64,000 nt of DNA. It comes from a virus. Its lineage: Duplodnaviria; Caudoviricetes. Both the position numbers and the translations under genes were made by a program. Positions 2,606-57,114 of the stretch are shown piece after piece. The notes under the pieces are model-generated. The model made no database searches. It was not told the origin of the DNA and worked only from the letters and a program-made list of their open reading frames with translations. Position 1 is the first letter of the stretch, and each line of letters opens with the position of its first letter. The stretch is taken from positions 32,001-96,000 of the IMG/VR virus record IMGVR_UViG_3300020577_006271. One strand, given 5' to 3'.

Positions 2606-3079
2606 TTAAGGTTTTTTATATTGTATTCGGGGTGGATATATTTTTAGTGATTGACGCAATACGGGTGTTCCTCTTACTACATCACTTGTCCAAGGGTGAA
2701 CTTGCGCAGTATTTAAATTATAATTTGCAGCCAATTTTTTTGCCAAAAGTGTAACTTCTACACCAGTGTTTCCATTTGTGACGTCAATCCATTTACCTAA
2801 TGCATTTTTATATTCCTTCGGATAATAAATATGTATGGTAACAGAATCCCAAGAATCGAACTGTTCTCCATATTCAACAAATATGCTTTTCGCATAACTT
2901 TCGCCGTGTGCCTGAGTTAATTCCGCTTTGATATCTCTTAAATATAATTCAATCTTTTGTAATTCAGCTTTAATTCCCGCAAGTGATGCTTCATAATATC
3001 TAGAAAATCTATCAAAGATCTCATTGTTCACTTCATTAAAAGTTGCATTTTCGTTTAAAATATTTTTAAATTTAATCAT
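2606..3079 (-). CDS. hypothetical protein with MIKFK-type leader (putative internal head protein)
   Basis: N-terminus MIKFKNILNE. Confidence 0.75.
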   Translation of the reverse strand: MIKFKNILNENATFNEVNNEIFDRFSRYYEASLAGIKAELQKIELYLRDIKAELTQAHGESYAKSIFVEYGEQFDSWDSVTIHIYYPKEYKNALGKWIDVTNGNTGVEVTLLAKKLAANYNLNTAQVHPWTSDVVRGTPVLRQSLKIYPPRIQYKKP

Positions 3080-3093
3080 GTTATCTTTATATT

Positions 3094-3198
3094 TTAATTT
3101 AATTTTAAAATCATTTTATCTATCAAATTTTGTCTAGAATCTATGTTAAACAAAAATTTGTTTATTTTACTTCGAAGCTTATTACAGGCTGAAAATAT
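3094..3198 (-). pseudogene. relic 3' end of a homolog of gene 3235..4011
   Basis: Translates IFSACNKLRSKINKFLFNIDSRQNLIDKMILKLN*, 11/34 identical and co-terminal with IFTTLQNFGNKIKSYLNRADKRQDQINNLIFNLK*. Confidence 0.65.
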
Positions 3199-3223
3199 AC
3201 AAAAAATTATTCAATTATCCAAA
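3192..3223 (-). promoter_or_regulatory. Bacteroidota-type promoter (duplicate copy)
   Basis: TTTG-N20-TATATTTT. Confidence 0.55.
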
Positions 3224-3234
3224 TTATTTGTCAA

Positions 3235-4011
3235 TTATTTTAAATTAAATATTAAATTATTTATTTGATCTTGCCTCTTGTCAGCTCTGTTTAAATATGA
3301 TTTGATTTTATTTCCAAAATTTTGCAAAGTAGTAAATATTCTATCAAAAATTCCTTCGTTTAACGTCAATGATTCTCCAACATTAACGGAGAGTCGCCTT
3401 TTAGCCCCAGCCTTTACTACGTCAGCTGATGCAATTACCGATGCTTCTTTAATTAATCCATCAATTGTAGTTTTTAAATCAGCATTTTGTGCCAATAATA
3501 ATTCCACGACCTTCTGATAATCAGTAGAAATTATATCTCCAGCTTTTGTAATTACTTTGTCTTGGTTTGTCTCAGTTAATTTACTTAATGTAAAGGAACT
3601 ATTAAGACATTCGACAGTTAAAGTCATTGCCTTTTCACCATCATCAAATATATCAACTACCTTTTCACGAATTTTATTATGTAATTCTTCTTCTTGGGCA
3701 GCGACTTGATTTTTCAGCTCGTTTAATTCGCGTTTCTTTTCTTCAAATAGTGATACTGATTTATCCAATGCTTGCCAAGACTTGGCCAATGATGTAAAGG
3801 CTGCTGCCTTTTGGGCAGAAACTGTTGCAATAACTTTATCCTTTTTAACTTCATATGAAGCATAGGTATTATCTCTGGCTTCAACTATATAATCATTTAC
3901 ATTTTCAGTTTTTAATGTATGATTAATTGTTGCAATTATTTTATTATAATCTGGAGATTGTCCTGGATATAATAAATGTATATTCTCTGCTATTTTATCT
4001 ATTAATTTCAT
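3235..4011 (-). CDS. hypothetical coiled-coil protein, possible head protein
   Basis: 258 aa ORF; IAEN, IVEA, VGES, LNEG putative protease sites. Confidence 0.6.
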   Translation of the reverse strand: MKLIDKIAENIHLLYPGQSPDYNKIIATINHTLKTENVNDYIVEARDNTYASYEVKKDKVIATVSAQKAAAFTSLAKSWQALDKSVSLFEEKKRELNELKNQVAAQEEELHNKIREKVVDIFDDGEKAMTLTVECLNSSFTLSKLTETNQDKVITKAGDIISTDYQKVVELLLAQNADLKTTIDGLIKEASVIASADVVKAGAKRRLSVNVGESLTLNEGIFDRIFTTLQNFGNKIKSYLNRADKRQDQINNLIFNLK

Positions 4012-4016
4012 AATTT

Positions 4017-5285: not shown

Positions 5286-5286
5286 T

Positions 5287-6393: not shown

Positions 6394-8403
6394 CTATAAA
6401 CGTTTGTATTGAATGTTATCAAAAAATGTTAATATGCCAGATAATTGAGTTACCCAATCCGAATCAGCTGTAAAAGTGTGAGTCACTGACCTAACCATAA
6501 AATATGATTTTGTGTCAAAATAATTTTGTGTCAGGTGGTTTGTAGCAATGGCATTTCCAATTGTGAATCCATAACAACCATCTAATGTCACATCTAATTC
6601 TAAACCTGGATAGGTTGGTAGATCATGTTGCTTTGAATGCGATGATGGTTTTGAAATTGTTAATGTGTTAACAGCAGATTGCAACGACGATTCTTTTTCT
6701 GGGTTAAACCTAGTTTCAATTAATTCCCCCGGAACTTTAATAAGTTTTAAGACATCCGTTTGAGCCTTATTAAATGCAATTGTTCTTTTTACGTCTATCT
6801 TAGCTAGTTTATCAGGTGTGATATTGTGGACCGGGTCGCCTTGTGAAGTTTGACCTGCCATCATTGCCGATGCCATTTCAGCAGACCCAGCATTAGATCT
6901 AAGATTAATTGATCTAGATGATCCATCTCCATCTATTCCGTTAAATACAATGCAATCTAATTTCTTAGCATATCCATTTCGTTGATCAACAATGACCAAA
7001 TAATCTGTTTTTTCAGGATGTTGTGTTAATGTTAAATTTATAGATCCACCGGATGCTTCTTTAATCGTTGTGAAAATTTTTGAAAGAAAAACCATAACAT
7101 TTATTGATTCGCCAGTTTTTGTTTTATCATTGATTTTGTCTGAGTTGGATTCTTCTTTTTTGGCTGCTTCATCTAAAGCATCTAATATAACAGAGCGTTC
7201 TAATATAATTTTTTTAAAATCAATAATATTTGACGGACCATTTGATCCTTCGACAGCCTTTATTGGCTCCAGACCTGCTCCGCCTACTTTTTCAAAATTG
7301 ATTCCGAGTTCATCTCCTACTGAATATGTTCCAGCATAATTTCCTTTGTTATTTCCTGCGAATACGCATTGCGTAGGTAATCCAGAAATAATTGCTTTAC
7401 TGATATAAGATTTAGAAAGAACTGGATCAAATACAATGGCGGTTGGTGAAAATTGTGCTGCCAATATAACATCATCTTTATATTTCATATGCGTATGGCC
7501 CATAATTAATCGGTTGACAATGTATTCTAACGTGTAATAGACAATATTTACCGATGAAGTAGTTGACGACGCACCTAAATAACCTTCTTGTATAGATTGC
7601 CAAGCTTTACCGACTCTACCGCTGAGATATGTTTTATGTGATGCCTTGTAAACTATAACAGCACCCGGTTTAGAACTAAATCCCTTTTCTGACAATGTAT
7701 ATGTATGATTTCTATCGGGAATGAAAGACACTCCATCATTACCAGACAAATTTATATCGTCGATTGCTTTTTGCCCATTTTGTTGGGCGTCGAAGGTCAT
7801 TAATTCTAATAACCCTTGAACATTTAGGGTTTCTCTGCCTGACAAATATGACAATCCATTAAATTTACCACCAACCAATGTCTCTAATTTCTTTAAAGCT
7901 TCTGTTGCTCTAACTGCAGAACCCTTAACAATGTAACATCCTTGGTCATCTGTGTTAAATTCAAATGTAACCAACAAGAATTTTTCAACCTTAATGTATT
8001 GTTGATCTACTATCCAATGCTTAGGATAACCAAACTCAGCTGAAATCTCAGTTCCATATCGACAAAAGACTTTCTCTATTTCCTTGAATGTTTCCCGATC
8101 AAAACATTTAATTGACCACGACAATCCTTCTTTAAACCCATATTCAGTGGGAGAATATGTAATTGTTGCTTCTTCAAGTGATGGATAAGGTTTAAATTTA
8201 TTGTATTGAGATTCTGGGAATGAATCAGATAATCTTACTCCTGGAACCGTTGCACTTCCACCTTCACCCTTTCCAGTCAATTTAAAGTAGGCTGGGTTTC
8301 TTGTTGCGGCTTTATAATGCGGACCGTTTTTAAAAAGGTCCAGGCGTTTTTGTAAGACTCCTAACGCACCATGAGTTGGATTATTTCTATAAACGTTTTC
8401 CAT
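6394..8403 (-). CDS. putative baseplate hub protein (gp27/gpD-like)
   Basis: C-terminal LELDVTLDGCYGFTIGN...FMVRSVTHT..WVTQLSG pattern; position downstream of the gp53-like gene. Confidence 0.55.
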   Translation of the reverse strand: MENVYRNNPTHGALGVLQKRLDLFKNGPHYKAATRNPAYFKLTGKGEGGSATVPGVRLSDSFPESQYNKFKPYPSLEEATITYSPTEYGFKEGLSWSIKCFDRETFKEIEKVFCRYGTEISAEFGYPKHWIVDQQYIKVEKFLLVTFEFNTDDQGCYIVKGSAVRATEALKKLETLVGGKFNGLSYLSGRETLNVQGLLELMTFDAQQNGQKAIDDINLSGNDGVSFIPDRNHTYTLSEKGFSSKPGAVIVYKASHKTYLSGRVGKAWQSIQEGYLGASSTTSSVNIVYYTLEYIVNRLIMGHTHMKYKDDVILAAQFSPTAIVFDPVLSKSYISKAIISGLPTQCVFAGNNKGNYAGTYSVGDELGINFEKVGGAGLEPIKAVEGSNGPSNIIDFKKIILERSVILDALDEAAKKEESNSDKINDKTKTGESINVMVFLSKIFTTIKEASGGSINLTLTQHPEKTDYLVIVDQRNGYAKKLDCIVFNGIDGDGSSRSINLRSNAGSAEMASAMMAGQTSQGDPVHNITPDKLAKIDVKRTIAFNKAQTDVLKLIKVPGELIETRFNPEKESSLQSAVNTLTISKPSSHSKQHDLPTYPGLELDVTLDGCYGFTIGNAIATNHLTQNYFDTKSYFMVRSVTHTFTADSDWVTQLSGILTFFDNIQYKRL

Positions 8404-8873
8404 TATAGTGTGTTAAAATATTGTTCAAGTTCGTAATCAGTCTTAAAATATTTTATGTCTTTGGGCTTATAATGCACCATTTCTCTACCCTTAATAATAA
8501 CACCATCATAACCTTTTTTCATCATTTCATCTTCAATTGTAAATCCTTTCGCTTCAAAATTTCTAACATCCATTACTGATGAGTCCAATCCAAGAGCATC
8601 TTGTTTAAGTTTATGCCTATAAATTTCCCAACTATTCAAACCATCAAAAATTTTAGGGTTTTTAGGAATTGCATTTACAACAAAATACACATCACCATAT
8701 TGTTTGGCCATTGATTTATTTGATAGTGGAACAGTATATAATCCATTACCAATTGAACCATAAACTTGATTATCACTCCCCAAATTTTTTATACCTCGTA
8801 ACGTTACATTTTTTCGTTTCCAATTCTTAAAATCTGAAGTTGATTCTAAAATAATATCTTTAAATTTAATCAT
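8403..8873 (-). CDS. MIKFK-leader protein with ADP-ribosyltransferase-like (ART-PolyVal-type) domain
   Basis: MIKFKDIILE leader; LRG..GNGLYT..AKQYG..PKNP..GYDGVII..EMVHYKPKDIK. Confidence 0.65.
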   Translation of the reverse strand: MIKFKDIILESTSDFKNWKRKNVTLRGIKNLGSDNQVYGSIGNGLYTVPLSNKSMAKQYGDVYFVVNAIPKNPKIFDGLNSWEIYRHKLKQDALGLDSSVMDVRNFEAKGFTIEDEMMKKGYDGVIIKGREMVHYKPKDIKYFKTDYELEQYFNTL

Positions 8874-9195: not shown

Positions 9196-9747
9196 TTATT
9201 TGCCCGGGGTCATTTTACCGTCAGACTGATACTTTCCGGTATAATAATCACCTTTATTTTTATAATCTGGTTTCTTTGATCCTACAACTTGCAATGTCGC
9301 CGAACAGTTAATGTATATGGGCAAATTATCTATCCACGGTGTATCATTATTAATATCAATGGTAAATGATGTTAATATACCGTATTCATCGAGCAGCTTT
9401 CCAATTTTCATTTTAGTAAAAATTCCGTTAAATCCTCGCCCAGGTTTATAAATTGGTCTAGTTTGACGGGCTACATTATTTAATGCTTCCAAATAAAATG
9501 TATGCTCTCCATTATATAATGCTGCAGTAATGAAATTAACTGAAATTGTACGTTGGTATGAGTCATATTTCATTTTCGGATCTGCTCTACCTATATCCAT
9601 ATTCGATGACCATGATGGACTATGATTATCAGAAATACTGTGTATAAACGCAGGAAATTTGATAATAGGTCCCGGTCCTTCAGATGGTATGAATGCCTGA
9701 AAGGAAAATTCCGTTGGTATAGCTTCTGTCCGTAAGGTTGCCGCCAT
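9196..9747 (-). CDS. baseplate/tail tube initiator-like protein
   Basis: FPAFIHSISDNHSPSW..IGRADP..YDSYQRTISVNF; position in tail cluster. Confidence 0.6.
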   Translation of the reverse strand: MAATLRTEAIPTEFSFQAFIPSEGPGPIIKFPAFIHSISDNHSPSWSSNMDIGRADPKMKYDSYQRTISVNFITAALYNGEHTFYLEALNNVARQTRPIYKPGRGFNGIFTKMKIGKLLDEYGILTSFTIDINNDTPWIDNLPIYINCSATLQVVGSKKPDYKNKGDYYTGKYQSDGKMTPGK

Positions 9748-9989
9748 TAAATATTTTTATAAATCAATTTAAATTTTGGTAATGCCTTCTCCATCTCAGT
9801 AATTAGAAATCCTAAATTAACTGAATCTAATTTACCTGAATCCATAGCTTTTTTTGTAGTGACCATCGTTTTAAATAATGGTAACATTGTTTGCTGAGCC
9901 ATTCTAGTGCCATTCGAATTTTCATTCAATTTTTTACTAATTGCAGATTCAGTTAATTTAACTATTTGTTTGATTTGTTCTTTTGTCAT
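9747..9989 (-). CDS. hypothetical protein with MTKEQ-type leader
   Basis: MTKEQIKQIVKLTESAISKKLNE. Confidence 0.7.
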   Translation of the reverse strand: MTKEQIKQIVKLTESAISKKLNENSNGTRMAQQTMLPLFKTMVTTKKAMDSGKLDSVNLGFLITEMEKALPKFKLIYKNI

Positions 9990-10709: not shown

Positions 10710-10985
10710 TTATAAATGAGAAATCATTTTAATTTCATCTTCTAACGTATCGTGAAATCTATAATCCAATTTACTCATTTCTTGGTGTAATTCTCGGATT
10801 TTAGTATTGCCTGGGTTAGATTTTCGCATTTTACCTAATGTGATAGCCATATCTTCTATAGCAGTTTGTGCAAGTCTATGCGAATGCCTAAGTTGGTCTC
10901 CATCAGGTGAATTACCTTCATTCAATTTTTTATTAACGATTGTTTCCGTTAATTTAACTATTTGTTTGATCTGTTCTTTTGTCAT
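10710..10985 (-). CDS. hypothetical protein with MTKEQ-type leader
   Basis: MTKEQIKQIVKLTETIVNKKLNEG. Confidence 0.7.
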   Translation of the reverse strand: MTKEQIKQIVKLTETIVNKKLNEGNSPDGDQLRHSHRLAQTAIEDMAITLGKMRKSNPGNTKIRELHQEMSKLDYRFHDTLEDEIKMISHL

Positions 10986-16447: not shown

Positions 16448-16681
16448 TTATTTTCGTATTTCTTTTTTGTATGTTATATTAACTCTACCTTTGCACATAG
16501 GAGAATCTGGATATGCTTTACAATACCAAGACATATTGTCTTCTAATTGCTTAATATCCTGTTGTACTTTTTTAAATTCTCCTTCTAATCCAGGATCGGT
16601 TACTTTTATGGATGCTGCTATTTTTCCCATTTCAGCTGACATGCGTCTGGATATTAGCATTTTTATTAGTGATCCTATCAT
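16448..16681 (-). CDS. hypothetical protein
   Basis: 77 aa ORF, ATGA overlap with upstream gene. Confidence 0.55.
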   Translation of the reverse strand: MIGSLIKMLISRRMSAEMGKIAASIKVTDPGLEGEFKKVQQDIKQLEDNMSWYCKAYPDSPMCKGRVNITYKKEIRK

Positions 16682-16905
16682 GATTTATTATAGGTATTTC
16701 GAATTGAACGGAATTCACTGATGTCACTTAATGCTTCACTTAAATTATCCATCAGGATACTGTATTTTTCCTTAAGATCCGTTTCAATGTGCAACGCTTT
16801 CATTTTTTTCAAACTTGTCCAAATATCAGTTTCGACATCGTTTAATTGTTTATCGATTTCGTCTGTCATGTAAGACTCGAAAAGTATGTCTTTAAATTTT
16901 ACCAT
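16678..16905 (-). CDS. hypothetical protein with MIKFK-type leader
   Basis: MVKFKDILFE from ATG 16905. Confidence 0.7.
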   Translation of the reverse strand: MVKFKDILFESYMTDEIDKQLNDVETDIWTSLKKMKALHIETDLKEKYSILMDNLSEALSDISEFRSIRNTYNKS

Positions 16906-20070: not shown

Positions 20071-20904
20071 TCAAGATAGGTCATCGGATAGCATGGTTGG
20101 AGTTATTTTTAATCCAGGCGGCCCAATGATTTTTGGTCTAGGCATGTAATCAACAGCAAAGTCTGGTTCGCCCCATTCATTTGTGAAATCAACTCGCTTG
20201 ATGGTATATGCTTTCTGAACATCTGCTTGGTTTGCTGTAAATTCATTTCTTAGCATACCATGAACCGTTAACGGTACCGTAGCTTTAATGACTCGGTCTT
20301 CACCTGAGTTATTTATTTGTTCGAATTGAAACTCTCCCACATCCGTCGAAAATTGAAAATTATCTCCCCAAAGGCTTTGATCATACGTTAATACCTGTTC
20401 AACAATTGTATTTAATTGACTCTGTTGGTGCGTCCATATCATTAATTCGTAGTTAACTATGACAGTGGTAGGTATGACCGAAATCAAATATTCATATGAT
20501 TCATTGGTATTATCAGTGCGAGATAAATTGTTGAACTTATCCGCTTTATTTTTTGGTGGTAAATATAATAATTTACCAGCAACATCCGAAAATTGAAACA
20601 TTTCATCTTCTAATAATGAAATGCGTTTAATAACAATTAATGGCGCCATTAATTTATTGTCAGAAGTTCTTAATAACGCTCCATATTTTTGTATTTGTGC
20701 CCACTTTTCTCCGGCGGCCATTATGACTGGGACTTCTATCATTTCATTATCGGATTCAATCCGAAGTTTCATACCATTTTGTAATTGCCAAAGAATAGCA
20801 TAATCAATATCGTAGATAGTGATGGCAGGAATTAACTTACTATCACTATTTTCATCTTTCCTGATTAAAGACTTGTTGATATCTTTGGATTCTCTGAATT
20901 GCAT
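20071..20904 (-). CDS. tail sheath stabiliser/terminator (gp15-like)
   Basis: IYDIDYAI..VPVIMAAGEKW..PLIVIKR..YELMIWT; upstream of sheath. Confidence 0.7.
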   Translation of the reverse strand: MQFRESKDINKSLIRKDENSDSKLIPAITIYDIDYAILWQLQNGMKLRIESDNEMIEVPVIMAAGEKWAQIQKYGALLRTSDNKLMAPLIVIKRISLLEDEMFQFSDVAGKLLYLPPKNKADKFNNLSRTDNTNESYEYLISVIPTTVIVNYELMIWTHQQSQLNTIVEQVLTYDQSLWGDNFQFSTDVGEFQFEQINNSGEDRVIKATVPLTVHGMLRNEFTANQADVQKAYTIKRVDFTNEWGEPDFAVDYMPRPKIIGPPGLKITPTMLSDDLS

Positions 20905-21528: not shown

Positions 21529-21540
21529 TTTAATCCTTAT

Positions 21541-21747: not shown

Positions 21748-21793
21748 TATATTGCTGCCTTTATTGATGAAAGAAATCTTGTTTTAAATAATT

Positions 21794-30508: not shown

Positions 30509-30512
30509 AATA

Positions 30513-30544
30513 TAAATATACAAAAAATATTTCATTTATCCAAA
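30513..30544 (-). promoter_or_regulatory. Bacteroidota-type promoter directly abutting ATG
   Basis: TTTG-N20-TATATTTA, 4 nt before ATG. Confidence 0.65.
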
Positions 30545-34512: not shown

Positions 34513-34525
34513 GAAATATTTAAGT

Positions 34526-39602: not shown

Positions 39603-40421
39603 TTATCCTTGTATTTTGTGTATTAATTCGTGATATTTTAGAAGTGTTGAGACATGTTCGTCTTTCACAGTCTTACTGACAATAATATTATCTAACAGTG
39701 ATGCAGCTTCTTTAATTTTTATGTTAAGCCTCGAAGATGTTGTTGTATTTTCAAGTAATTTCTTTTTAATCTTAGTACATTCACTAAGAATAAATTTTCT
39801 AAATTCAATATTATCAGGACCAGTTAAAATATATTGGCTTAAAATTTGTTTTTGGGATTCGTGCAAATTCCCATATTTATCGTTAAATTTGTCGAACAAC
39901 AATTTAATTGCCAATGATCGAGTAGGTCTATCAATAGTTTCAAACAATGTTTTGGCTGAAGGTTTAACTTCAGTTTCCTTATTCAGATGTTCCAAAACAA
40001 TTTCTCTTGATTTTAGTTTTTCAAGTTGATTACCAAAATTCCGATTTTCAAATAAATAACACAAAGCACCGTTTAAACGGTAATTTTCTATTTTGTGTTG
40101 AAAAAATTCATCTAAGTTATAATTTGTCTTAATTTCTTTAATTAAATTATATCGCTGTTTCTGAATAGCAGCCTCGTCTAATTTAGAATATTCGGATAAC
40201 GCTAAATCAATTAAACGTGTTCCATTTAATTTTTGGGTGTTTTCACTGAATAATTTATAGAGCGAATATTCCTTACCTAATTCAGATGACGATTTAAAAT
40301 ATCGTTTAATTATCTGCAAGGATTTTGAATTCTGTTCTGTTAATATCTCACTGACTATTCGTCTCGACAATAGTTCAAAAATTAAACCGGTATTTTTAAA
40401 CTTTGAAATTTTTATCTTCAT
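39603..40421 (-). CDS. conserved hypothetical head-morphogenesis protein
   Basis: SKFKNTGLIFELL..YNLIKEIK..KFNDKY..Q; directly downstream of portal. Confidence 0.65.
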   Translation of the reverse strand: MKIKISKFKNTGLIFELLSRRIVSEILTEQNSKSLQIIKRYFKSSSELGKEYSLYKLFSENTQKLNGTRLIDLALSEYSKLDEAAIQKQRYNLIKEIKTNYNLDEFFQHKIENYRLNGALCYLFENRNFGNQLEKLKSREIVLEHLNKETEVKPSAKTLFETIDRPTRSLAIKLLFDKFNDKYGNLHESQKQILSQYILTGPDNIEFRKFILSECTKIKKKLLENTTTSSRLNIKIKEAASLLDNIIVSKTVKDEHVSTLLKYHELIHKIQG

Positions 40422-40433: not shown

Positions 40434-42227
40434 TTAGACGTTGATTAAATGTGAAAATTTATCAATTGCCGTCTCACTTAACATCATTATCTCATCGTTT
40501 TCAGTTAAAATTTCCGAGTTGGTTTGAGATATCGACATTGTTTTTCTTAAGCTTTCCATGGCAGAACTAAGTTCTTTGGACCCAAACGGGTCTCTACCAA
40601 GATCTTTATCTTTAACAGTACCAAACTTATTAGCTTCTGGTGGACGACCTTGGTTGTTTATTCTTTCATCCGGAACATATAATTGCTTGACGGCCGTTTC
40701 AGCTTTTGAATCGCCGCCATTATTATTATCAACATACATTGCAGCAAGTGTATGCGGTGTTCCAACAGCAACTCCGGAAATTTTAGGATCATTTCCTTCT
40801 TCGGTAATTTGTTTTTCTCTGAAAGACAATTGTAAATCTTGTATAATATCATCCGACATCGCCTTCCATTCTTCAGCAGATAAGTTGAAGATGGTTTCAT
40901 AAATATATTTTCTAGAAAATAAATTCGTTTCCTTCATCGTTGACACCAGATCTGTTTTTTCTTTTAACAGTTCTATTTTTTGCCGTTCGTATATCAATGA
41001 TGGATTGGTCAAGGTAAGTTCAAATTCTAATAATTCTGAATTGGTGAATCCTTGTGCCATTAAATGTATATATGCAATCTTGTATAATTCGCCGATAATT
41101 ACCTTTTGAATTCTACCAATTGTTCTCGCGAATCTAACATCTTCAGCAGCCAATAAACTTTTCCCTTCAGTTGATTCTTCTTCGCCCAAATAAGCTAATG
41201 GAATTTTAAGGTTCTGCATCATTTTTTTACGAATATATTGAATATCTTCAATTGAGCCTTCATTTGCAGATCCATCTAAAGTTTCAATAGTTGTACCGCT
41301 ACGATCACCACGAATTGGAAAATAATAATCCTCGTTGATATTCTGTATATTATATGATAAGTTGTATTGTCCTGTTGCTGGATCGATATACGGAACTTTT
41401 TTATTCAAGTTCATAATCTCTTCCATGTGGGTGTCCACGTCGTTGGGATTTAAATTACCGACATCTATTTTGAATATACGTTTGGCTGGAGCTCGCATAA
41501 TTCTATGAATTAACATCGCGTCTTCCATTAAGGTCAATTTTTTATATTCCTTCTTAGCACCTTCGATTATAGATTTTCCATAAGGTAAATACGCCGAATC
41601 GGATAAAAGTCTAAAATGCGCTACTTCGTGTAAATCAAAAATATTTTTAGAAACTGACAAATAGCCACCATCTATAGGTTGGAATTTAAACTGCACATTA
41701 TCACCATCTTCGACTCTTCGCATTAAGGATGGGTGCAATGGAATGACTTCAATTATTCCGGCCCCGTCTTGAATATTTAATACCAAAAATAAGTCACCGT
41801 TTTTTACTAAGGACCTAACCCAAAACCACAAATTATATTCTACATTTAAAACATCATAGAATAAATTAACCAATATTTTTTTTAATTTTATGTTAGTTGT
41901 TTGTATGGTGATTAAATCTCCGGTTGGAGAATTCGCAGTTGCTTCATCCGCATAGATATCGAGAGCCGACGACAATATAGCATCGGTATCCATTAACTCA
42001 TAATCATAATAAGTTTCTAGACGTGATAATTCAATCGATTCAATATTACTCTGATAGCTGCCCCATCCACTATAATTATTTAAGGTTTTTCTCATCAATG
42101 TATAACGAGAATTTTGATTACCTATACTTTGTTGCTGGGCGAAGTCTATTAATTTCAACCTGTCGCCAGGTTGTTTAACCAATAATAATTTATTTGAAAA
42201 TAATCCCTGTAAAACCGTTTTAAGCAT
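40434..42227 (-). CDS. portal protein (T4 gp20-like)
   Basis: SALDIYADE, LMEDAMLIHRIMRAP.KRIFKIDVGN, EDYYFP.RG, EDVRF. Confidence 0.95.
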   Translation of the reverse strand: MLKTVLQGLFSNKLLLVKQPGDRLKLIDFAQQQSIGNQNSRYTLMRKTLNNYSGWGSYQSNIESIELSRLETYYDYELMDTDAILSSALDIYADEATANSPTGDLITIQTTNIKLKKILVNLFYDVLNVEYNLWFWVRSLVKNGDLFLVLNIQDGAGIIEVIPLHPSLMRRVEDGDNVQFKFQPIDGGYLSVSKNIFDLHEVAHFRLLSDSAYLPYGKSIIEGAKKEYKKLTLMEDAMLIHRIMRAPAKRIFKIDVGNLNPNDVDTHMEEIMNLNKKVPYIDPATGQYNLSYNIQNINEDYYFPIRGDRSGTTIETLDGSANEGSIEDIQYIRKKMMQNLKIPLAYLGEEESTEGKSLLAAEDVRFARTIGRIQKVIIGELYKIAYIHLMAQGFTNSELLEFELTLTNPSLIYERQKIELLKEKTDLVSTMKETNLFSRKYIYETIFNLSAEEWKAMSDDIIQDLQLSFREKQITEEGNDPKISGVAVGTPHTLAAMYVDNNNGGDSKAETAVKQLYVPDERINNQGRPPEANKFGTVKDKDLGRDPFGSKELSSAMESLRKTMSISQTNSEILTENDEIMMLSETAIDKFSHLINV

Positions 42228-42262: not shown

Positions 42263-43876
42263 TTATAATAACCATAATAATGATTCAGATTTACCATTTA
42301 CACGCATTGTATAATAATTTCCAGTTGACATTGCAGGTTTATATACGGTTTTACGAATGTTAGTTAAGGCCATCCGGTTAAGTTCAATACCTTTAGATCT
42401 TAATTTCAGGGCGGTATCTATTACAAATAATGCAATAGCCATGGCCATAACTAAATCGTCATTATATCCTGAATCGGCCTGAGCTTTTCCGTCTATCCAT
42501 TTAAATGCTTTAAATTGATTATGTAAACGGTGTGACCTATAGGTCAAATATCTTGAGTTTGCTTGTGTAGCCTGTTGTAATTTACCAATCATGGTTGGTC
42601 TCGTCTTAGGAGATGTGGTATGACCCGGCACCATGTCTTCTTTATTCTTTAGGTCGTAGTTTTTCGCAATGTGAATATTGGTGTCCACATATGGATCATT
42701 TCGAACCGTATAATATAAATTTTCATAGTTAAGCTCTAATACCGATTGAACTGTCGACCATCCAACATTTGCATTTTCTATTGCCAATAGTGCATTATTC
42801 CACTCGGTTGCAACTGATACTAAAATTCTAGCAAATTCTGTAGTACCCAATAGTCCTTCCCACTCTGCAACTTGTTCGCAGGCATCTACATCGACGACAA
42901 TAAACGTAGATTTATCTGATCCATCGCCCCTAGCTACATCCGCAGCAACAATGTAATTTTTTCCAGATTCTGGATATTTCCATATCCAATATTTTGATTC
43001 GGCACCACGCATTTCTATGGGATCCTTGACCGTATTAGCTTCATACCATTGAATATCTTCTGGATTGATGACTGTATGCCCAGATGCTTCAAATGATACA
43101 TCATTTTCTTGTGCTGCAGCTCTTTCTGATGATGCCAACGCTGTTTGTTGTTTTCTCCAAGTTTCATCACGTTCAGGATGTAATTCCCACGATAGTCGGA
43201 TTGGATTAAATTTTTCAAGCCCTTCGATTACGTCACCACTAAGTGCTTTAGTCCATAGGTTGTAAAATAAACCAGACGCGCCATTGGGTGTCGATAGTAT
43301 GATTGCCGAACCACCGGTTGCAAGTGTAGATTGTGCAGAAGTCCAAATTTCTTCAAATGCAGGAACGAATGCAGCTTCATCTATTATTAATAAAGACAAT
43401 GACTTTGAACGTGCAGCATTTTTATTACTCGAAACTGCTTCAACCGATGATCCATTAGTAAGAATTAGTTGGGTTTGGTTGTTATTAACAATCTGGGCAT
43501 GTTTTTTCAAATATGACGGCAATCCATCATACATTACTTTAACTTTACCGAATAACTCTCGTGCAATTAGCTGAGTAGTTGCTATAATCAATACTTTGAA
43601 TGACTCATTGCTAATTATTTTTGATATTACATGTGCCGCACATAATGTAGATATACCCATTTGCCGACCCTTACCAACAATGTTGAAACGGTGTTGATCA
43701 AACTGTTTAATGGTGGACTCTTGATATGGATATAAATTGAACGGTATTTTGCCTCTTAAAGGATGTTCAATCTTACAATGCTTGCGAATTAAATATATTG
43801 GATCTTCAAAACATTTTCGCTTTTCGTTTTCAATAACATCCTGCAGTTGCTTATTAATATTTGCCGAATCGGCCAT
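42263..43876 (-). CDS. terminase large subunit (gp17-like)
   Basis: KGRQMGIST, LLIIDEAAF, STPNG, ADVARGDGSD, NDDLVMA. Confidence 0.95.
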   Translation of the reverse strand: MADSANINKQLQDVIENEKRKCFEDPIYLIRKHCKIEHPLRGKIPFNLYPYQESTIKQFDQHRFNIVGKGRQMGISTLCAAHVISKIISNESFKVLIIATTQLIARELFGKVKVMYDGLPSYLKKHAQIVNNNQTQLILTNGSSVEAVSSNKNAARSKSLSLLIIDEAAFVPAFEEIWTSAQSTLATGGSAIILSTPNGASGLFYNLWTKALSGDVIEGLEKFNPIRLSWELHPERDETWRKQQTALASSERAAAQENDVSFEASGHTVINPEDIQWYEANTVKDPIEMRGAESKYWIWKYPESGKNYIVAADVARGDGSDKSTFIVVDVDACEQVAEWEGLLGTTEFARILVSVATEWNNALLAIENANVGWSTVQSVLELNYENLYYTVRNDPYVDTNIHIAKNYDLKNKEDMVPGHTTSPKTRPTMIGKLQQATQANSRYLTYRSHRLHNQFKAFKWIDGKAQADSGYNDDLVMAMAIALFVIDTALKLRSKGIELNRMALTNIRKTVYKPAMSTGNYYTMRVNGKSESLLWLL

Positions 43877-49554: not shown

Positions 49555-52500
49555 TTATATATATCGTATTAACGATTTATTATCATGTTTACTAATCGTC
49601 AATATATTATCAGCTACATCCTTAAGTGATTCTAAATGCGTTATGCACATTATGAAATCAAATTTATCTTTCAATTTGTCCAATAGCATATATACATTAG
49701 AAATTGAATTGGCATCTAATACCCCAAATCCTTCATCAATGGCAATGAAGTTTGGTCTCGCTAAGGATGTTACTTCAATTAATGCCACCCTAGAAGCTAC
49801 AGACACTAAGAATCTTTCCATTCCGGATGCTAATTCAACTGGCCATTTTTGGTCTCCATACACCAAGTGGCAATATATACTTTTTTCATCATTTGAAAAT
49901 TCAACTTGAAAATCACAAATTCCATGCAATAAATTATTAACTTCACTTTCAATTACCGGCATAATCTGCTTTAAAATATTGTATGGAATGCCATTTGATG
50001 ATACTGCATTAGCATAAGTTTGATACATCAATATTTCATTGGTTAATTTATTAAGTTCAATCTTATTATCGTTATTTTGTTTAAGTGATTCTTGTAATTT
50101 ACTAACATCAACTTTGAAATTAGTCATTAAAATTTCTAGTTTTTTTGACCGATCTTTCAAATCCTGGATTTGTTTTTCATTTTCTTCGATTATATTGCGT
50201 AAACGTATATTTTCGGTATATTGTTTTTCATTAGCGGTAAAGTCTCTTAATTCTTGTTCTACTCTAGCGATCGATGATTTCAATTCCTTAAATCTAAGTC
50301 TATACACTTCAACAGTCTGTTGGGCAGTTTGTAATTTAGATTCTATTAGCTGTTTATTATTAATTTTGTTGTGTAATTCTTTAAATTCACCAAGTATCAA
50401 TTTATACTCATTCATTTGATCTAACGAATTTACCAAATCAGCCGAAATTGAATTGAATTCGTTTACCAATTGTGGATATTTTTCTTTAGCGAGTTTTGCA
50501 GACTTAACAAAATCACTATTGCAACAAAATTCACAGTTTGGATCATATTCGTATGTTTCAAGAATTTGAATTTCTTTTTGATACGAAGTCATTTTATTTT
50601 TAATGGTGTTTAGCTTCGTTTCAGTTTCCTTTATCTTGGCAGTTAATGAAGTAGATTCAAATTTAATTTTTTTCTCTCTGTCATAATCAATTACAGTTGT
50701 TCCACATTTATCTATGTCTGAATTTAACTGTTTTATTGTGCTGTTTAAATCAGGAATTAACGTATTAACCAACACCGATAACTCATGTTCCATATCTTGT
50801 AATGAGTTTTCAATTTGGATCCTATTGCGAGTTGTTGGAATATCAACGATGGATAATAACGATGCTTTAATAATAGCATCTAACTCGGAAATCTGAGTGT
50901 GACATTCTGATACAGTAACTTCGTATTTGTTAATTAACTGCGTCTTTCTATTTATTTCACCTATAGTTTCAGATTCAGTTACTAAATTTACCTTGGTTGA
51001 TAAATTCGACACCACTGCTTGTTTATCTTTTATGATACCTTTAGCAAGCCAATTTAAATCGGTGAACAGCTTTAGATCCAAAAACGAATATAATAATTCT
51101 TTTCGTTCACGTTGTGTTTTAAATATAAAATTTCGGTTGTCGGTTTGTGTGCTTAAGGCGGTGAGCATGAAATCATCATACGATCCTAAATAAGAACGAA
51201 TAATTTTGTTCGTATCGTCTCGATCTTTTCCACGAAGTTGTTCGGATGATGAATAAAAATCAACGTTTACTCTAACCTTCCTGTCTTTATTGGCTGACCC
51301 CTGTCGTATAATGGTATATTCTTCATTATCAATTTCCAACCCGACTTTGACTACAAATGAATCGCTCTGATTGTTCAAAATCTCATCAGCTTTAAATGTC
51401 TTAGAACATTTATCGAACAAAGCAAATGATAATACTTCTAATAATGATGATTTTCCTGCTGCATTGGGTGCAAATATACCTTGAATTCCAGACATGTTTC
51501 TAAAGTCAACTGAATTATTAGATCCATATGAAAACATGTTGTCAAATTCCATATACAACAATTTCCAAGTCGTATTTCTGGCATTTTTATCTAGATTATT
51601 TAGTTGTGTGTTAACCGTTCGATTGATGTGCCTAATTCCATCAACAAAGTCGGTATCTTTATTATCAACAAATTCAGTAATCAATTGGTTTTGATATTCA
51701 ATATCTCTAACATTGCCAATCGACAAATCCGCTGTTTTTATATCGGAGTGATTGGTTAATTTTCGTAATGAATATTCTTTAAATACATGTTTAGATTTTA
51801 ACTTATCTAGAAATTGATGTATTATATCTAATTCAGTTTGACGATGTTTAACCTTAACTCTTAAATACTTAGGCAACAACGTGAAATATTCGGGATTAGT
51901 TACTAATTGGTTATCGTCGAATTCAAATGTCGCGTAAGCAATATCATTTTCAATTTCAACAAATTCATTTGTACCTGCGGCGATATTCCAAACTATTAAT
52001 CCATGGTGTTTAACAGTTTCTCCATAATTTTGTTGGATTAAACTCGACGAATACGCCATAGTTTTGGCCGGATTTAAATATTGCTGCTTATGAATGTCTC
52101 CAAACATTCCATAATCATAGCCCCGAAAGTTTTTGATCGTAACGGCATCATTTTCGATCACATGGTTTAAATCGGTGGTAGCACCCATAATTGCCCCGTG
52201 ATGTAATGCAATTTTAATATCAGATTTTGGCAAATCGGATGCTGGTGGCCATTGATCAATGGTATCAAATACTGAACAGACTCCAAAGGATATATTAGAA
52301 TCCGGTGTTAATTTATAAATTCCAGAATTTTTCCAATAATGTAAACGCCGATGTTTTAAATTTTCTACAATCGGAGACAAAGCATCAAGTCTAGAATTAT
52401 TATTTAAATTTGTGTCATGGTTACCACATATTAATATAGTTGGACATATATCAGCACATGATTTTAAGAATCTACCAACCATGTGTACCAATTCAGGGCT

Positions 52501-52671
52501 TAGATCGGTCTTTTGGTGGACAATATCTCCTGCTAAATAAATTACAGAGCCAGGAGTTTTATTATCCTTAATATATTTGTATAGACGTTTAAATACATTA
52601 TTGTATTCGGTATGTCTTTGGTAATTTCGGATATGTACATCCGATATATGAAATATTTTATCAATTATCAT
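49555..52671 (-). CDS. fused Mre11/SbcD nuclease - Rad50/SbcC ATPase (gp47-gp46)
   Basis: HISDVH, GDIVH, GNHD, GDIH; APNAAGKS, CEFC hook, ASGME, IDEGFG. Confidence 0.92.
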   Translation of the reverse strand: MIIDKIFHISDVHIRNYQRHTEYNNVFKRLYKYIKDNKTPGSVIYLAGDIVHQKTDLSPELVHMVGRFLKSCADICPTILICGNHDTNLNNNSRLDALSPIVENLKHRRLHYWKNSGIYKLTPDSNISFGVCSVFDTIDQWPPASDLPKSDIKIALHHGAIMGATTDLNHVIENDAVTIKNFRGYDYGMFGDIHKQQYLNPAKTMAYSSSLIQQNYGETVKHHGLIVWNIAAGTNEFVEIENDIAYATFEFDDNQLVTNPEYFTLLPKYLRVKVKHRQTELDIIHQFLDKLKSKHVFKEYSLRKLTNHSDIKTADLSIGNVRDIEYQNQLITEFVDNKDTDFVDGIRHINRTVNTQLNNLDKNARNTTWKLLYMEFDNMFSYGSNNSVDFRNMSGIQGIFAPNAAGKSSLLEVLSFALFDKCSKTFKADEILNNQSDSFVVKVGLEIDNEEYTIIRQGSANKDRKVRVNVDFYSSSEQLRGKDRDDTNKIIRSYLGSYDDFMLTALSTQTDNRNFIFKTQRERKELLYSFLDLKLFTDLNWLAKGIIKDKQAVVSNLSTKVNLVTESETIGEINRKTQLINKYEVTVSECHTQISELDAIIKASLLSIVDIPTTRNRIQIENSLQDMEHELSVLVNTLIPDLNSTIKQLNSDIDKCGTTVIDYDREKKIKFESTSLTAKIKETETKLNTIKNKMTSYQKEIQILETYEYDPNCEFCCNSDFVKSAKLAKEKYPQLVNEFNSISADLVNSLDQMNEYKLILGEFKELHNKINNKQLIESKLQTAQQTVEVYRLRFKELKSSIARVEQELRDFTANEKQYTENIRLRNIIEENEKQIQDLKDRSKKLEILMTNFKVDVSKLQESLKQNNDNKIELNKLTNEILMYQTYANAVSSNGIPYNILKQIMPVIESEVNNLLHGICDFQVEFSNDEKSIYCHLVYGDQKWPVELASGMERFLVSVASRVALIEVTSLARPNFIAIDEGFGVLDANSISNVYMLLDKLKDKFDFIMCITHLESLKDVADNILTISKHDNKSLIRYI

Positions 52672-54190: not shown

Positions 54191-54295
54191 TTAGTTAATA
54201 TTTAATAATTCTTTTAATTCTTTATAAACACCGTTTGGTATTTGAGCATTTTGTGCAAATTGTATTAAATCGTTATATATTTTTTCGTAATTCAT
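54191..54295 (-). pseudogene. truncated Mob-type HNH homing endonuclease N-terminus
   Basis: MNYEKIYNDLIQFAQ...YKE then stop, before any HHIIP motif. Confidence 0.55.
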
Positions 54296-54728
54296 ATAAT
54301 AATTCAGATTTGTTTGATATGTTAGAAAATTTGTTACTTCCGATAGATTCGTTGTAATAATAATCAGTTAATATAACATGATAATGATATTGGAAAAATA
54401 TTTCTAGGTAATTTACATGACTCTTGGTTTTCCCAAACATTAATATTTCAAATTTAAATTTGTCTTTACCGATATTTTTAATGTCTTCGTTTAAAACCTT
54501 TGATGAGCCAGTGTATTTAGCCCAATCCGATTCTTTGGTTATCACTTCTTTCCGTTTCCTTCCGGCAGCTTTTTGAACCTTGGTTAATGCCTTTCTTCTT
54601 ACGGAAATAGCATATTTTCTCCCGATGTACATTTTACCATTTTCTAAATTGGTAATTTTATAAATAAATCCAGCTACTCCTTGTGGCAGTTCTTCTATTG
54701 GTTCGTTATTGTAGGTCCAGTGACTCAT
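54273..54728 (-). CDS. GIY-YIG endonuclease
   Basis: GFIYKITN..YIGRK..SDW..YTGSS..E..YYN. Confidence 0.85.
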   Translation of the reverse strand: MSHWTYNNEPIEELPQGVAGFIYKITNLENGKMYIGRKYAISVRRKALTKVQKAAGRKRKEVITKESDWAKYTGSSKVLNEDIKNIGKDKFKFEILMFGKTKSHVNYLEIFFQYHYHVILTDYYYNESIGSNKFSNISNKSELLYELRKNI

Positions 54729-55060
54729 GATACTTTCTTTATATTTTTAGGTTCGAAAACTAAATAATCAGTTCTATCGGATTCTGGCAATATTACACCA
54801 TCATATCCATCAGCAATTAACTCGTCTATTGAATATTTATCATATTCATCCCATCCAGCTGGATTTTTAAGTGTTATTTCACGCTTCATTATATATTTTC
54901 CACCAGCTGCGCCTACTTCTCTATTCTTTAATGCTGTTACATTGTCAGTGAACCAGAACCCGTCCCAAGCATGATCTAATGAAAAATTATCAAATTTAGT
55001 ATCAGTTCCATGGTAAACAATATATTTATTTTCCCGTAATATGTCTTTGAATTTAATCAT
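54725..55060 (-). CDS. MIKFK-leader protein with ADP-ribosyltransferase-like (ART-PolyVal-type) domain
   Basis: MIKFKDILRE; VYHGT..FDNF..GFWFT..LKNP..GYDGVI..YLVFEPKNIK. Confidence 0.75.
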   Translation of the reverse strand: MIKFKDILRENKYIVYHGTDTKFDNFSLDHAWDGFWFTDNVTALKNREVGAAGGKYIMKREITLKNPAGWDEYDKYSIDELIADGYDGVILPESDRTDYLVFEPKNIKKVS

Positions 55061-55541
55061 CCGCACTCATTACCTTTAAAGGTGGATCAAATTTTGCGAC
55101 TATTCCTCCTACTGCAGAAAATGAAACATTTGAACCTTTGGCTTTTGCAAATTTAGTTAAATAATATTTGTATAAGGTATCTCTTCTGTTACCAGATTCA
55201 TCATCTTCCTTTTTCGGATCATATTTAATGTAAATTAATGCTTTTTCGTCATACTTTTTGGCATATCTCGTTAACCATTCTTGAGTTGCACCTAATACAA
55301 AAGACATAATTTTTAGTGCATTATTTTGATTAGTCATCTCTGTACTACCGTTAGCATAAAAATCAATAGATATAGCTATTTTATCAGATATATTTATCAA
55401 TAATCGGATGTCTACGAAATAGGTATCATTTAAATATTTAAACGAAGCAGTTCCGCCGTTTTCATTGATTGTGAATGTGCTTCCTGGAGCAATTTGGATA
55501 TTATCTCCAATTTCAGTTAATATGTCTTTAAATTTAATCAT
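55053..55541 (-). CDS. hypothetical protein with MIKFK-type leader
   Basis: MIKFKDILTE. Confidence 0.75.
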   Translation of the reverse strand: MIKFKDILTEIGDNIQIAPGSTFTINENGGTASFKYLNDTYFVDIRLLINISDKIAISIDFYANGSTEMTNQNNALKIMSFVLGATQEWLTRYAKKYDEKALIYIKYDPKKEDDESGNRRDTLYKYYLTKFAKAKGSNVSFSAVGGIVAKFDPPLKVMSADD

Positions 55542-55881
55542 CAAACCTCGTTTTATTTATCTCATCCCATAAACTATTATTTGGTAAGTTAGGGCCAAGT
55601 CCTGATGATAAATTTGAATTGAGTATAAAATCAGTGGCAATTTGTATTCCAACATATTTAATATCAGGCGATGCTTCCTTAAATGATACCATATCCGATT
55701 CTGTAAACTCATTCATATTTTTATTCACCAAAAATGTTGGTGTCGGATCTATAACGATATTATCGTCTTTAACTATCCATCCATGGTTAATAGCCGACGG
55801 GAAGTCTTTAATATCTATTAATAATTCGTTTTCATGTTTAAATTTTCCATGCAACAATTCAATTATACTAAATTTAATCAT
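55534..55881 (-). CDS. degenerate MIKF-leader protein with partial papain/transglutaminase-like domain
   Basis: MIKFSIIE; HGWIV..IDPT but no Cys in the ORF. Confidence 0.5.
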   Translation of the reverse strand: MIKFSIIELLHGKFKHENELLIDIKDFPSAINHGWIVKDDNIVIDPTPTFLVNKNMNEFTESDMVSFKEASPDIKYVGIQIATDFILNSNLSSGLGPNLPNNSLWDEINKTRFDD

Positions 55882-56414
55882 ATATTATCAATTATAAAAT
55901 TCATTGTAGCATCTTTACCTTTCAAATCTTTCCAATGTCTAGAATTAATAAAAGTAGAATATAAACCATTCATATTAGCAATTGCTTCAGCTTCCCATGG
56001 TAGTTTCGTGTATGATATGTGATCTGATTTCATTAGCTTATTATAATCCCTAATGTTAATATATTCTTTACCTTTCCATATGATGGCGGTATAATCTTTA
56101 TTTGGCAGAAGTTCTTTTTTAGAAACCTGCTTAACATGAGTTAATTCATGTATCATAGCTTGTATAATGCGCCGATACGATTGATTTGGATTGAAATGTA
56201 AGTAAAATTTACCATTATTTACGGAGTTTGAATTTAATGATATATCACCAATCATTTCCGTTGCATCTTTTTTCTTTACTATAATCTTAGCATCAAATTC
56301 ATATCTATCCATCATAAACGAAACTACTGATTTAACCAGCATTGTTTCATATGGTTTCAATTTTAATGATGTACCAAAAAGGTCTTCAGTTAATATATCT
56401 TTAAATTTAATCAT
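55878..56414 (-). CDS. MIKFK-leader zincin metallopeptidase
   Basis: MIKFKDILTE; IHELTHVKQ..PWEAEA. Confidence 0.8.
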   Translation of the reverse strand: MIKFKDILTEDLFGTSLKLKPYETMLVKSVVSFMMDRYEFDAKIIVKKKDATEMIGDISLNSNSVNNGKFYLHFNPNQSYRRIIQAMIHELTHVKQVSKKELLPNKDYTAIIWKGKEYINIRDYNKLMKSDHISYTKLPWEAEAIANMNGLYSTFINSRHWKDLKGKDATMNFIIDNI

Positions 56415-56433
56415 TTTTTCCTTATTTATTCCT

Positions 56434-57114
56434 TTAATCGTATTCTTCTAAATATTGAAAACAGTATTTTAAAAATTTTTTCCATGTGTCGTTTTGTTCT
56501 TCAGGATCGTAGAAATAATCCCAATACTTCCAAAAAGCATTAGATTCAGCAGCGTCGATTTTTGAATTTTTCGGATTTCTTAATAATTGTAAGACATCAT
56601 CTTTAGTGTAACCGTTGGACATTAAATCAACAATGGCTTCGTTTGCGTGTGCCATAATTTCATGAACATTACTTAAATACTCGGTATTATTTGTTGCGTC
56701 AGAAGATGGTTTCATTTTACCTCCAGATTTATCAAGTTGATTTACATGTGTCAATTCGTGGGTTAATATACCTTTAACAGTTCTAACAAATGTAACGTAA
56801 TAATATTGATCTAAAATATCTATTAGCTCGTCGAATACATATATTGTTATGTTTCCACCTGAATCAACTGAGCCTCCATATATACCTACATCTTGATAAG
56901 CTGGCGGATTACCGTCAATATCTCCCATAACAAATTCAACATTATATTCGTGAACAGCGTCGTTAAATAATTCAACTGCATCAATAGTAGATTCACATTC
57001 TAAAAATTTATCCTTTAATGGTATTAATTTTCCAGAAACGTGAGATGCAATAGATTTAATATCGGATTGATCACGTTCTAATATTAATTTTGCTATATCT
57101 TTAAATTTAATCAT
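56434..57114 (-). CDS. MIKFK-leader zincin metallopeptidase
   Basis: MIKFKDIAKLILE; THELTHVNQ..YL...HEIMAHA. Confidence 0.8.
   Translation of the reverse strand: MIKFKDIAKLILERDQSDIKSIASHVSGKLIPLKDKFLECESTIDAVELFNDAVHEYNVEFVMGDIDGNPPAYQDVGIYGGSVDSGGNITIYVFDELIDILDQYYYVTFVRTVKGILTHELTHVNQLDKSGGKMKPSSDATNNTEYLSNVHEIMAHANEAIVDLMSNGYTKDDVLQLLRNPKNSKIDAAESNAFWKYWDYFYDPEEQNDTWKKFLKYCFQYLEEYD

Follow-up and report, generated by a model that had tools for sequence, protein, structure and literature searches.

Proteins that a phage injects decide the first minutes of infection, and they are known for only a handful of model phages. Phage T4 packages into its head, processes with the prohead protease gp21, and injects the ADP-ribosyltransferase (ART) Alt. 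Its internal proteins (IPs) IPI, IPII, and IPIII carry an N-terminal capsid-targeting sequence (CTS) that gp21 removes (Mullaney and Black 1996, as reviewed in PMC9026906 and PMC3012670). For packaging, residues 1-10 of IPIII are enough; residues 4 and 7 of the CTS mainly drive targeting, and residues 8 and 10 processing (PMC9026906). Since the internal proteins of T-even phages are diverse and share only the conserved CTS (PMC3012670, PMC9026906), the concept of such an address is already established. Here, we describe a leader of this kind in a 64,000-nucleotide stretch (hereafter, the window) that spans bases 32001-96000 of the 162,683-bp IMG/VR virus record IMGVR_UViG_3300020577_006271, in which otherwise unrelated small genes begin with variants of MIKFKDILxE. 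What is new is the clade, the leader sequence, and the set of cargo proteins; for T-even phages, the principle has been published. Sequence comparisons suggest that this uncultured T4-like phage probably packs the tagged proteins in its head and passes them on together with the DNA.

A shared decapeptide leader

The initial annotation had named eleven leader genes in the window, and all eleven proved to be real minus-strand open reading frame (ORF) starts with the N-termini that it gave. We name each after its start position, and a slash marks the end of the leader. They are c3079 (2606-3079, 157 amino acids [aa], MIKFKNILNE/NATF), c8873 (8403-8873, 156 aa, MIKFKDIILE/STSD), c16905 (16678-16905, 75 aa, MVKFKDILFE/SYMT), c21528 (21190-21528, 112 aa, MIKFKDIFQLNE/ATGG, with the Glu at position 12), c21747 (21541-21747, 68 aa, MIKFKDILNE/SNSE), c22192 (21794-22192, 132 aa, MIKFKDILLE/SNDV), c55060 (54725-55060, 111 aa, MIKFKDILRE/NKYI), c55541 (55053-55541, 162 aa, MIKFKDILTE/IGDN), c55881 (55534-55881, 115 aa, with the degenerate leader MIKFSIIELL), c56414 (55878-56414, 178 aa, MIKFKDILTE/DLFG), and c57114 (56434-57114, 226 aa, MIKFKDIAKLILE/RDQS). 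The genome holds 14 tagged genes in total. Three lie outside the window on the plus strand near tRNAs, at genome positions 148250, 150675, and 151048; the first (MIKLRSLLTE) is a fourteenth copy added by a relaxed search pattern, and two overlapping leader genes (genome 150675-152253, L070:3176-4754) directly follow a tRNA.

The sharing of this leader is far beyond chance. A chance-level frequency, which the initial annotation had held up as a possible objection, was not what we found: the strict DNA pattern matched 12 times in the genome and its reversed-pattern control not once, and the relaxed pattern matched 9 times against 0 for its control. The same leader pattern gave only 0-1 matches in each of five T4-like phages (the cyanophages Syn9, S-PM2, and P-SSM2, the pelagiphage HTVC008M, and Rhodothermus phage RM378). 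The likeness is restricted to about ten codons. Upstream, the 70 nt preceding the leader genes show no conservation. Downstream, similarity stops after the Glu, as had been proposed: with the first 12 residues removed, the bodies were unrelated by blastp except for two weak pairs, c55060/c8873 (1.8e-4, in a C-terminal GYDGVI strand) and c56414/c57114 (0.005, in a HELTH helix).

Within the leader, the 13 copies of this genome (G000) have F4 and I7 in 12/13, L8 in 10/13, and E10 in 11/13, the conservation at positions 2, 4, 7, 8, and 10 coming partly from the search pattern itself. At positions that the pattern does not fix, 43 distinct leaders retain K3 in 84% and D, N, or S at position 6 in 98%. 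Codon usage is far looser: Ile2 is encoded by ATT, ATA, or ATC, Asp6 by GAT (16) or GAC (14), and Leu8 by five codons. Residues are held while codons vary, and therefore selection acts on the peptide.

The leader also resembles the T4 sequences directly. In T4, whose genes we read from NC_000866, IPII and IPIII begin with MKTYQEFIAE/A, IPI with MKTFKEFTSTTTPVSTITE/A (MKTFKEF..ITE/A), and gp24 with MAKINELLRE/S. The two leaders share one register: Met1, an aromatic or hydrophobic residue (or Leu) at 4, Lys or Gln at 5, an acidic residue at 6, hydrophobic residues at 7-8, Glu10, and a small residue next. We consider it likely, from this sequence likeness, that the decapeptide M-I-K-[FL]-x-[DNS]-[IL]-L-x-E is the phage clade's version of the T4 CTS.

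The head module and leader exchange among phages

The record has a CheckV completeness of 88%, and all genes of the window lie on the minus strand at a GC content of about 32%. A megablast search with a 20-kb piece returned no near-identical phage record from the phage collection. Judged by the capsid protein, the closest relatives in culture are Microcystis phage Mel-JY01 (49%) and the Flavobacterium 'immuto' phages (45%), with RM378 (34%) a more distant relative than either. The placement among Bacteroidota jumbo phages, made before these comparisons, is not supported. A genome of about 163 kb at 88% completeness is not that of a jumbo phage, and a Bacteroidota host is not shown, the nearest cultured relatives infecting Microcystis and Flavobacterium.

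The gene content of the window describes a T4-type head. A major capsid protein (MCP) of the Gp23 type (30614-32251; PF07068, 6e-62, domain from residue 67), a prohead maturation protease of the T4 gp21 type (Peptidase_S77; 38561-39187; PF03420, 3.2e-34; phrog_207, 2.3e-54), a portal protein of the T4 gp20 type (40434-42227; PF07230 [Portal_T4], 6.3e-66), and a large terminase of the gp17 type (42263-43876) were all recognized. Directly upstream of the MCP gene, in the position of the gp22 scaffold, is a gene for an acidic 284-aa protein (32271-33125, pI 4.4), and between the portal and protease genes lies one for a basic 272-aa protein (39603-40421), a candidate prohead core protein.

These head proteins carry the motif at which the leader ends. 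The initial annotation had placed [LIV]-x-E sites in the presumed scaffold, the MCP N-terminus, the portal C-terminus, and both ends of the protease, and we found every one of them. The MCP has four sites in its first 56 residues (LLE32, LDE36, LLE47, and LRE56/A) versus two in the other 489. The protease has NLSE20/S near its N-terminus and VNE173/S, IYE184, and ICE196 near its C-terminus, and the scaffold-position protein has 15 sites. The portal sites (LTE576/N and LSE585/T) we treat as motif occurrences only, from which nothing is drawn, because the T4 portal is not processed (PMC5694885). The genome-wide density is 1.64 +/- 1.17 [LIV]xE sites per 100 aa, and among proteins no shorter than 100 aa the motif is densest in the scaffold-position protein (5.28), followed by the 272-aa candidate core protein (5.15) and the protease (4.33). 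At 52% of the core-protein sites, versus 32% genome-wide, the Glu is followed by S, A, G, N, or T. The MCP propeptide motifs KWGRVGLLE/G, LLE/NQ, and LRE56/A parallel KWKPLLE/G, IFE/NQ, and FLTE65/A of T4 gp23; we compared these motifs directly, the automatic MAFFT alignment having misaligned them. We suggest that the enrichment in core proteins is an independent sign of the site cut by the predicted S77 protease.

Homologs of two cargos show how leader and body are joined. Close orthologs of c56414, which has 120 homolog clusters, carry MI[KR][LFI]..[IL][LI].E directly before the conserved body DLFGTSLKLKP, and orthologs at about 50% identity carry other leaders that meet the body at the same point and end in [LIF]-x-E, such as MELRKFIATTIREYLNEQQSLNE/DIF. 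The >317 homolog clusters of c8873 bear dozens of leaders (MIKFKDIILE, MELRKFIATTIREYLNE, MKLKSILLE, MDIKKILKE, and others), and MELRKFIATTIREYLNE heads orthologs of both cargo families. An [LIVFMY]xE site is present in 104/107 leaders of the c56414 family and 114/115 of the c8873 family, versus about 18% per 15-aa body window.

One c56414 ortholog (P0109) has the leader MKTFKKFIYE and is the middle gene of a three-gene tandem array on a 40-kb contig from JGI 3300042261 (L072:9601-11166), whose leaders, (L)KTFNEFIFE, MKTFKKFIYE, and MKTFKKFIYE, are almost canonical T4 CTSs. Two radical-SAM genes and an Acb3-family gene are found at a distance of 2-4 kb from this array. Another ortholog (P0102) sits in the slot after the tail tube gene of a 101-kb T4-like contig (Gp23, gp13, sheath, gp19, baseplate). 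The corresponding slot of the window holds c16905, and the syntenic slot in contig L074 holds a different leader-tagged cargo. Leaders are thus lineage specific and swapped at a fixed junction, and these sequences suggest that the leader behaves as a module following the phage and not the cargo, address and cargo evolving separately.

The exact leader DNA pattern recurs in 35 other IMG/VR contigs, where it heads many different proteins. An S77 protease or Gp23 was found in 13/35, a co-occurrence that comes from contigs of which 30 are <30% complete and that has no control for the base rate of S77 among viral contigs. In some contigs, the head module itself encodes an exact-leader protein, its gene lying between the protease gene and those on the portal side. 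The complete 176-kb phage G004, which has an S77 protease, encodes ten unrelated proteins of 106-429 aa that start with MI[KST]L..[IL]L.E, and leader copies are also present in G032, in Mel-JY01 (three paralogs, starting at 60276, 60923, and 62056 of PP395634), and in the Flavobacterium phage vB_FspM_immuto (one gene, at 24569 of NC_055915). In G006, a close relative of G000, the common cargos are 96-98% identical. There, c22192 is absent, and a comparison of G006:C1:11224-13119 with window positions 55053-57114 showed that c57114, c56414, c55881, and c55541 are absent as well: the 520-aa gene is followed directly by the ART gene, here with a GTG start (VIKFKDILRE), and the junction is at the 5' edge of a leader. 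Because G006 misses c22192 and four genes of the 55-57 kb array, cargo turns over quickly.

Tagged proteins and their gene setting

We searched the cargos against Pfam (at curated cut-offs) and PHROGs. The product of c55060 matched PF18760 (E 2e-11, 45.3 bits versus a cut-off of 31.2) and is, on that match, an ART-PolyVal ADP-ribosyltransferase. c8873 had no Pfam match; its AF2 model (pLDDT 87.5) gave as best Foldseek match 6kyf (E 9e-4), known in the literature to be AcrIF11, an anti-CRISPR ART that is CRISPR-specific, and as second match 9k3a_B, a chain of the cyanophage A4 pre-ejectosome. Further fold matches were the catalytic domains of diphtheria toxin, PARP, and cholix, and the VIA rows were all ARTs, with middling and uniform Z scores of 4-6.3. 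The GYDGVI motif is common to c8873 and c55060. A profile comparison of the two aligned only the C-terminal GYDG strand (probability 52%), so the ART status of c8873 rests on its fold, and we describe it as a modeled ART-fold protein.

In c56414, H89, E90, H93, and E141 (PWE141, within a PWE-x-EA motif) are invariant in 32 homologs. Its model has a pLDDT of 88, with residues 1-14 below 50; the leader is a low-confidence N-terminal segment in both models (c8873 and c56414). The fold matches are almost wholly zincins, again with middling scores (Foldseek E 0.04-0.3, VIA Z 5-7.1). We predict that c56414 is a zincin-fold protein, of unplaced subfamily and putatively a metallopeptidase, with an HExxH helix plus a downstream Glu ligand. 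The acidic product of c57114 is a second HExxH protein (HELTH), and hhalign matched it to the c56414 family across 25 columns around HELTHV (E 5e-6).

For c3079, c16905, c21528, c21747, c22192, c55541, c55881, c57114, and g150675, neither Pfam nor PHROGs returned anything above threshold. c22192 is a near-orphan, and c21747, which has an ortholog in G006, has a basic mature part (pI 9.5). c55881 is without Cys; by eye, an HGW..DPT pattern in it looks like the C-terminal half of both g150675 and g151048. A papain-like reading of these three proteins, based on motifs seen by eye, was not confirmed. Outside the window, g151048 (401 aa) has an N-terminal Cys...His pattern and a weak match to NTP_transf_2 (nucleotidyltransferase, 0.036), and it may be a two-domain cargo. 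The cargo set would then comprise two ART-type and two HExxH zincin-type enzymes, unconfirmed papain-like candidates, and several small proteins without an assigned family.

The leader genes had been described as interleaved among structural genes for late expression. This holds for several of them, which lie in tail/baseplate runs (c8873 among them) or, like c16905, just downstream of the tail tube gene. It does not hold for c3079, which adjoins genes for a gp32-like single-stranded DNA-binding protein and a UvsX-like protein, or for the three copies near tRNAs on the other strand. A motif, AACTATTTAT, lies 12-53 nt upstream of the tail tube, sheath, portal, and other structural genes and is about 10-fold enriched in upstream regions; its sites precede the window genes ending at 17554, 19995, 25060, 26235, 42227, and 45089. 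We regard it as a candidate late promoter, the promoter class being a guess. The T4-style late motif TATAAATA was not enriched. Most leader genes sit in tight same-strand runs behind AACTATTTAT-bearing genes, so late co-transcription, and with it late expression of the leader genes, is plausible.

A second shared leader, of 23 residues (MT[KR][ED]QIK[QK]IVKLTE[ST]..KKLNE/), has two L-x-E sites and likewise precedes unrelated bodies. It heads three minus-strand genes of the window, at 9747-9989 (MTKEQIKQIVKLTES..KKLNE/N), 10710-10985 (MTKEQIKQIVKLTET..KKLNE/G), and 20904-21188 (MTRDQIKKIVKLTES..KKLNE/S). G006 has four members of this class. A third leader type, MSTKLRQI[VI]ETIVDRK, is found on two genes outside the window; genome 101324-101506 and 103965-104420 are loci outside the window that belong to this set of second and third leader types.

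The rest of the window encodes a tail sheath, tail tube, and tape-measure protein and UvsX-, gp32-, primase-, and SbcC-like proteins. Between the head genes lie two genes of 419 and 542 aa (33253-36154) whose GC content is 0.39 versus about 0.32 elsewhere; with PHROG matches to head-decoration and tail-fiber-like families, they are possibly head fibers or decoration proteins acquired from elsewhere. A 644-aa protein encoded next to the MCP (28601-30535) has a Vsr-like endonuclease segment at residues 214-271 (Pfam 25 bits, just below cut-off). A 1038-aa ORF (49555-52671) matches SbcC/gp46 over residues 260-1035 and has, by eye, an SbcD/Mre11 phosphoesterase-like N-terminus (DVHIRN); it may be a fusion of gp47 and gp46. 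Directly downstream, the five-gene cargo array is followed by a homing-endonuclease-like gene (54273-54728), whose best PHROG match is labeled NAD synthetase and is followed by four homing-endonuclease PHROGs.

Proposed mechanism, alternatives, and known systems

We consider it probable that the leader targets proteins to the capsid as in T4 and that the S77 protease then cuts it off. The leader would dock the tagged proteins onto the scaffolding core, probably the 32271-33125 protein plus other core proteins, and the capsid shell would close around this core. The gp21-type protease, the presumed remover of the leaders, would then cut after the Glu of [LI]-x-E, freeing the mature cargo in the head, and the same protease would degrade the scaffold and trim the MCP propeptide. 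At infection, the cargos would leave with the DNA and affect the host ahead of all phage gene expression. Injection and effector action are somewhat less probable than targeting and cleavage. Docking, cleavage, virion residence, injection, and host targets are inferences from sequence.

A T4-style leader, cut after [LI]-x-E and addressing many cargos, was also the proposal of the initial annotation, and it is supported computationally by the T4-type head genes, the T4 leader register, and the motif enrichment. The proposal also fits the exchange of leaders at one junction, the T4-type head genes found on other leader-bearing contigs, and the enzymatic cargo. The cargo types, namely an ART-PolyVal protein, an ART fold near AcrIF11 and a packaged pre-ejectosome protein, and a zincin fold, are those that injected effectors might be expected to have.

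Several points weigh against capsid targeting, beside the contribution of the search pattern to leader conservation and the absence of a base-rate control for the contig co-occurrence. First, the presumed scaffold and docking core (32271-33125) is assigned from gene position, composition, and motif density, and it had no Pfam or PHROG family match. Second, c3079 and the three other-strand copies lie outside the structural modules, as T4 ip genes likewise do (NC_000866), and none of the leader genes has its own copy of AACTATTTAT. Third, the mature cargos range in pI from 4.5 to 9.7 and so are not uniformly basic. A literature search, finally, found no paper on Mel-JY01.

Part of the gene setting would also suit a different destination. 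Leader genes 8873, 16905, and 21528-22192 are inside tail/baseplate gene runs, the 23-residue class occurs within the window only in such runs, and the ART-fold cargo c8873 resembles part of a podophage pre-ejectosome protein. The leader might then be a protease-removable propeptide or assembly tag for another virion compartment (tail lumen or baseplate), or it might keep enzymes inactive until maturation. We think this unlikely: S77/gp21 proteases are known to act within the prohead (PMC5694885), the leader and the T4 head CTS correspond position for position, and an exact-leader protein lies within the head module of other contigs, T4 ip genes being scattered too.

Improbable, in our judgment, is a common origin of the bodies, by which the tagged genes would be fast-diverging paralogs of one small protein whose conserved N-terminal helix has a non-packaging role (oligomerization or host-partner binding). 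The two weakly similar cargo pairs, the partly tandem arrangement of the genes, and the true paralogs among the Mel-JY01 copies are in its favor. It is countered by the different modeled folds of two cargos (ART and zincin), by the sharp end of similarity after about 10 residues, and by cargo families that elsewhere carry unrelated leaders at the same junction, one of them of the T4 type.

Very little credit is due to the proposal that the conserved 30 nt act as nucleic acid, as a translation-initiation enhancer or a cassette-shuffling recombination site, and that the peptide is without function. The leader DNA is AT-rich and starts at the ATG, and the four-gene block that is present in G000 and absent from G006 has one junction exactly at the leader 5' edge; that junction, however, is not a simple product of crossing-over inside a repeat. 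Residues are moreover conserved through synonymous changes, the peptide is kept between lineages with different codons, and the Glu stands at a fixed distance with a small residue after it. Recombination at leaders could coexist with a targeting role. A recognition sequence for a modifying enzyme of the radical-SAM type, for which the MKTF-type array of L072 with its two radical-SAM genes within 4 kb might speak, is rejected as scarcely credible, since a PF04055 search found no such enzyme in G000, G006, or G032, the sub-threshold match in G004 is about 70 kb from its leader cluster, and the leader ends in a protease motif.

Returning to capsid targeting, we tentatively extend it to a lineage-specific address code, a doubtful but possible reading of these data. 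The leader would co-evolve with scaffold and protease, any cargo that passes from one T4-like lineage to another would need a new leader at the fixed junction, and the phage would run at least two parallel codes (10 and 23 residues), perhaps for copy number, position, or release time. If so, the injected proteome of uncultured T4-like phages would be readable from sequence, it would be the equivalent of a polyvalent effector divided among several proteins with a tag each, and an AcrIF11-like ADP-ribosyltransferase might disable host defense before any phage gene is expressed. More generally, a sequence-recognizable leader would let candidate injected proteins be listed for a whole clade of uncultured aquatic T4-like phages. 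The cargos would be a source of counter-defense candidates, the nearest solved structure to c8873 being the anti-CRISPR ART AcrIF11, and the decapeptide might serve as a packaging tag when phages of the clade are engineered, as the T4 CTS does in T4. Cultured relatives make the packaging prediction directly testable.

Among known systems, the giant phages of the phiKZ-like and SPN3US type have ejection-protein propeptides, and their prohead protease cuts after x-x-E (PMC5694885). The protease superfamily is the same as here, and paralogs in those phages share identical N-termini that are thought to be head-targeting (PMC5694885). Their propeptides are mostly >100 residues long, in contrast to the T4-length decapeptide of this phage, and their head genes are not T4-type.

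Polyvalent proteins (Iyer, Burroughs, Anand, de Souza, and Aravind 2017, PMC5512222) are predicted to be injected with DNA, and ART and zincin are their commonest enzymatic domains. The cargos described here share with them an ART-PolyVal protein and a zincin-like metallopeptidase, possibly also a papain-like peptidase and a Pol-beta nucleotidyltransferase, and the prediction of effectors delivered at the start of infection. Instead of the 2-15 disparate domains per polypeptide of the polyvalent class, we find tagged proteins of 68-226 aa, both modeled ones single-domain: separate small proteins, each with its own leader, and no fusion into a giant polypeptide. Delivery would use a CTS and not fusion to virion structural domains.

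ARTs have been argued to be often head-packaged in myoviruses (PMC9503650). As in T4 Alt, an ART of a T4-type phage has here a protease-type N-terminal propeptide and a predicted delivery with the DNA. In contrast to Alt, which belongs to the Alt/VIP2 family, c55060 falls in the ART-PolyVal (H-Y-D) family; c55060 and c8873 are 111 and 156 aa long, and we infer no C-terminal processing.

The T4 internal proteins are the closest parallel. The leader here is MIKFKDILxE instead of MKTYQEFIAE; in T4, an E10D substitution prevents cleavage of the leader and leaves packaging intact. The larger modular arsenal that had been proposed agrees with the count of 14 tagged genes (plus 3 in the window with the 23-residue leader) versus three T4 IPs, a predicted cargo set several times larger. 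The T4 IPs are small basic proteins, whereas these cargos include enzymes (ART and zincin). Both systems place a 10-residue N-terminal leader on otherwise unrelated proteins, and both combine it with an S77 protease, a Gp23 MCP propeptide rich in L-x-E, and an acidic scaffold-position protein. In both, finally, leader genes are dispersed beyond the head operon, and one has tRNA genes as neighbors, as T4 ipI does.

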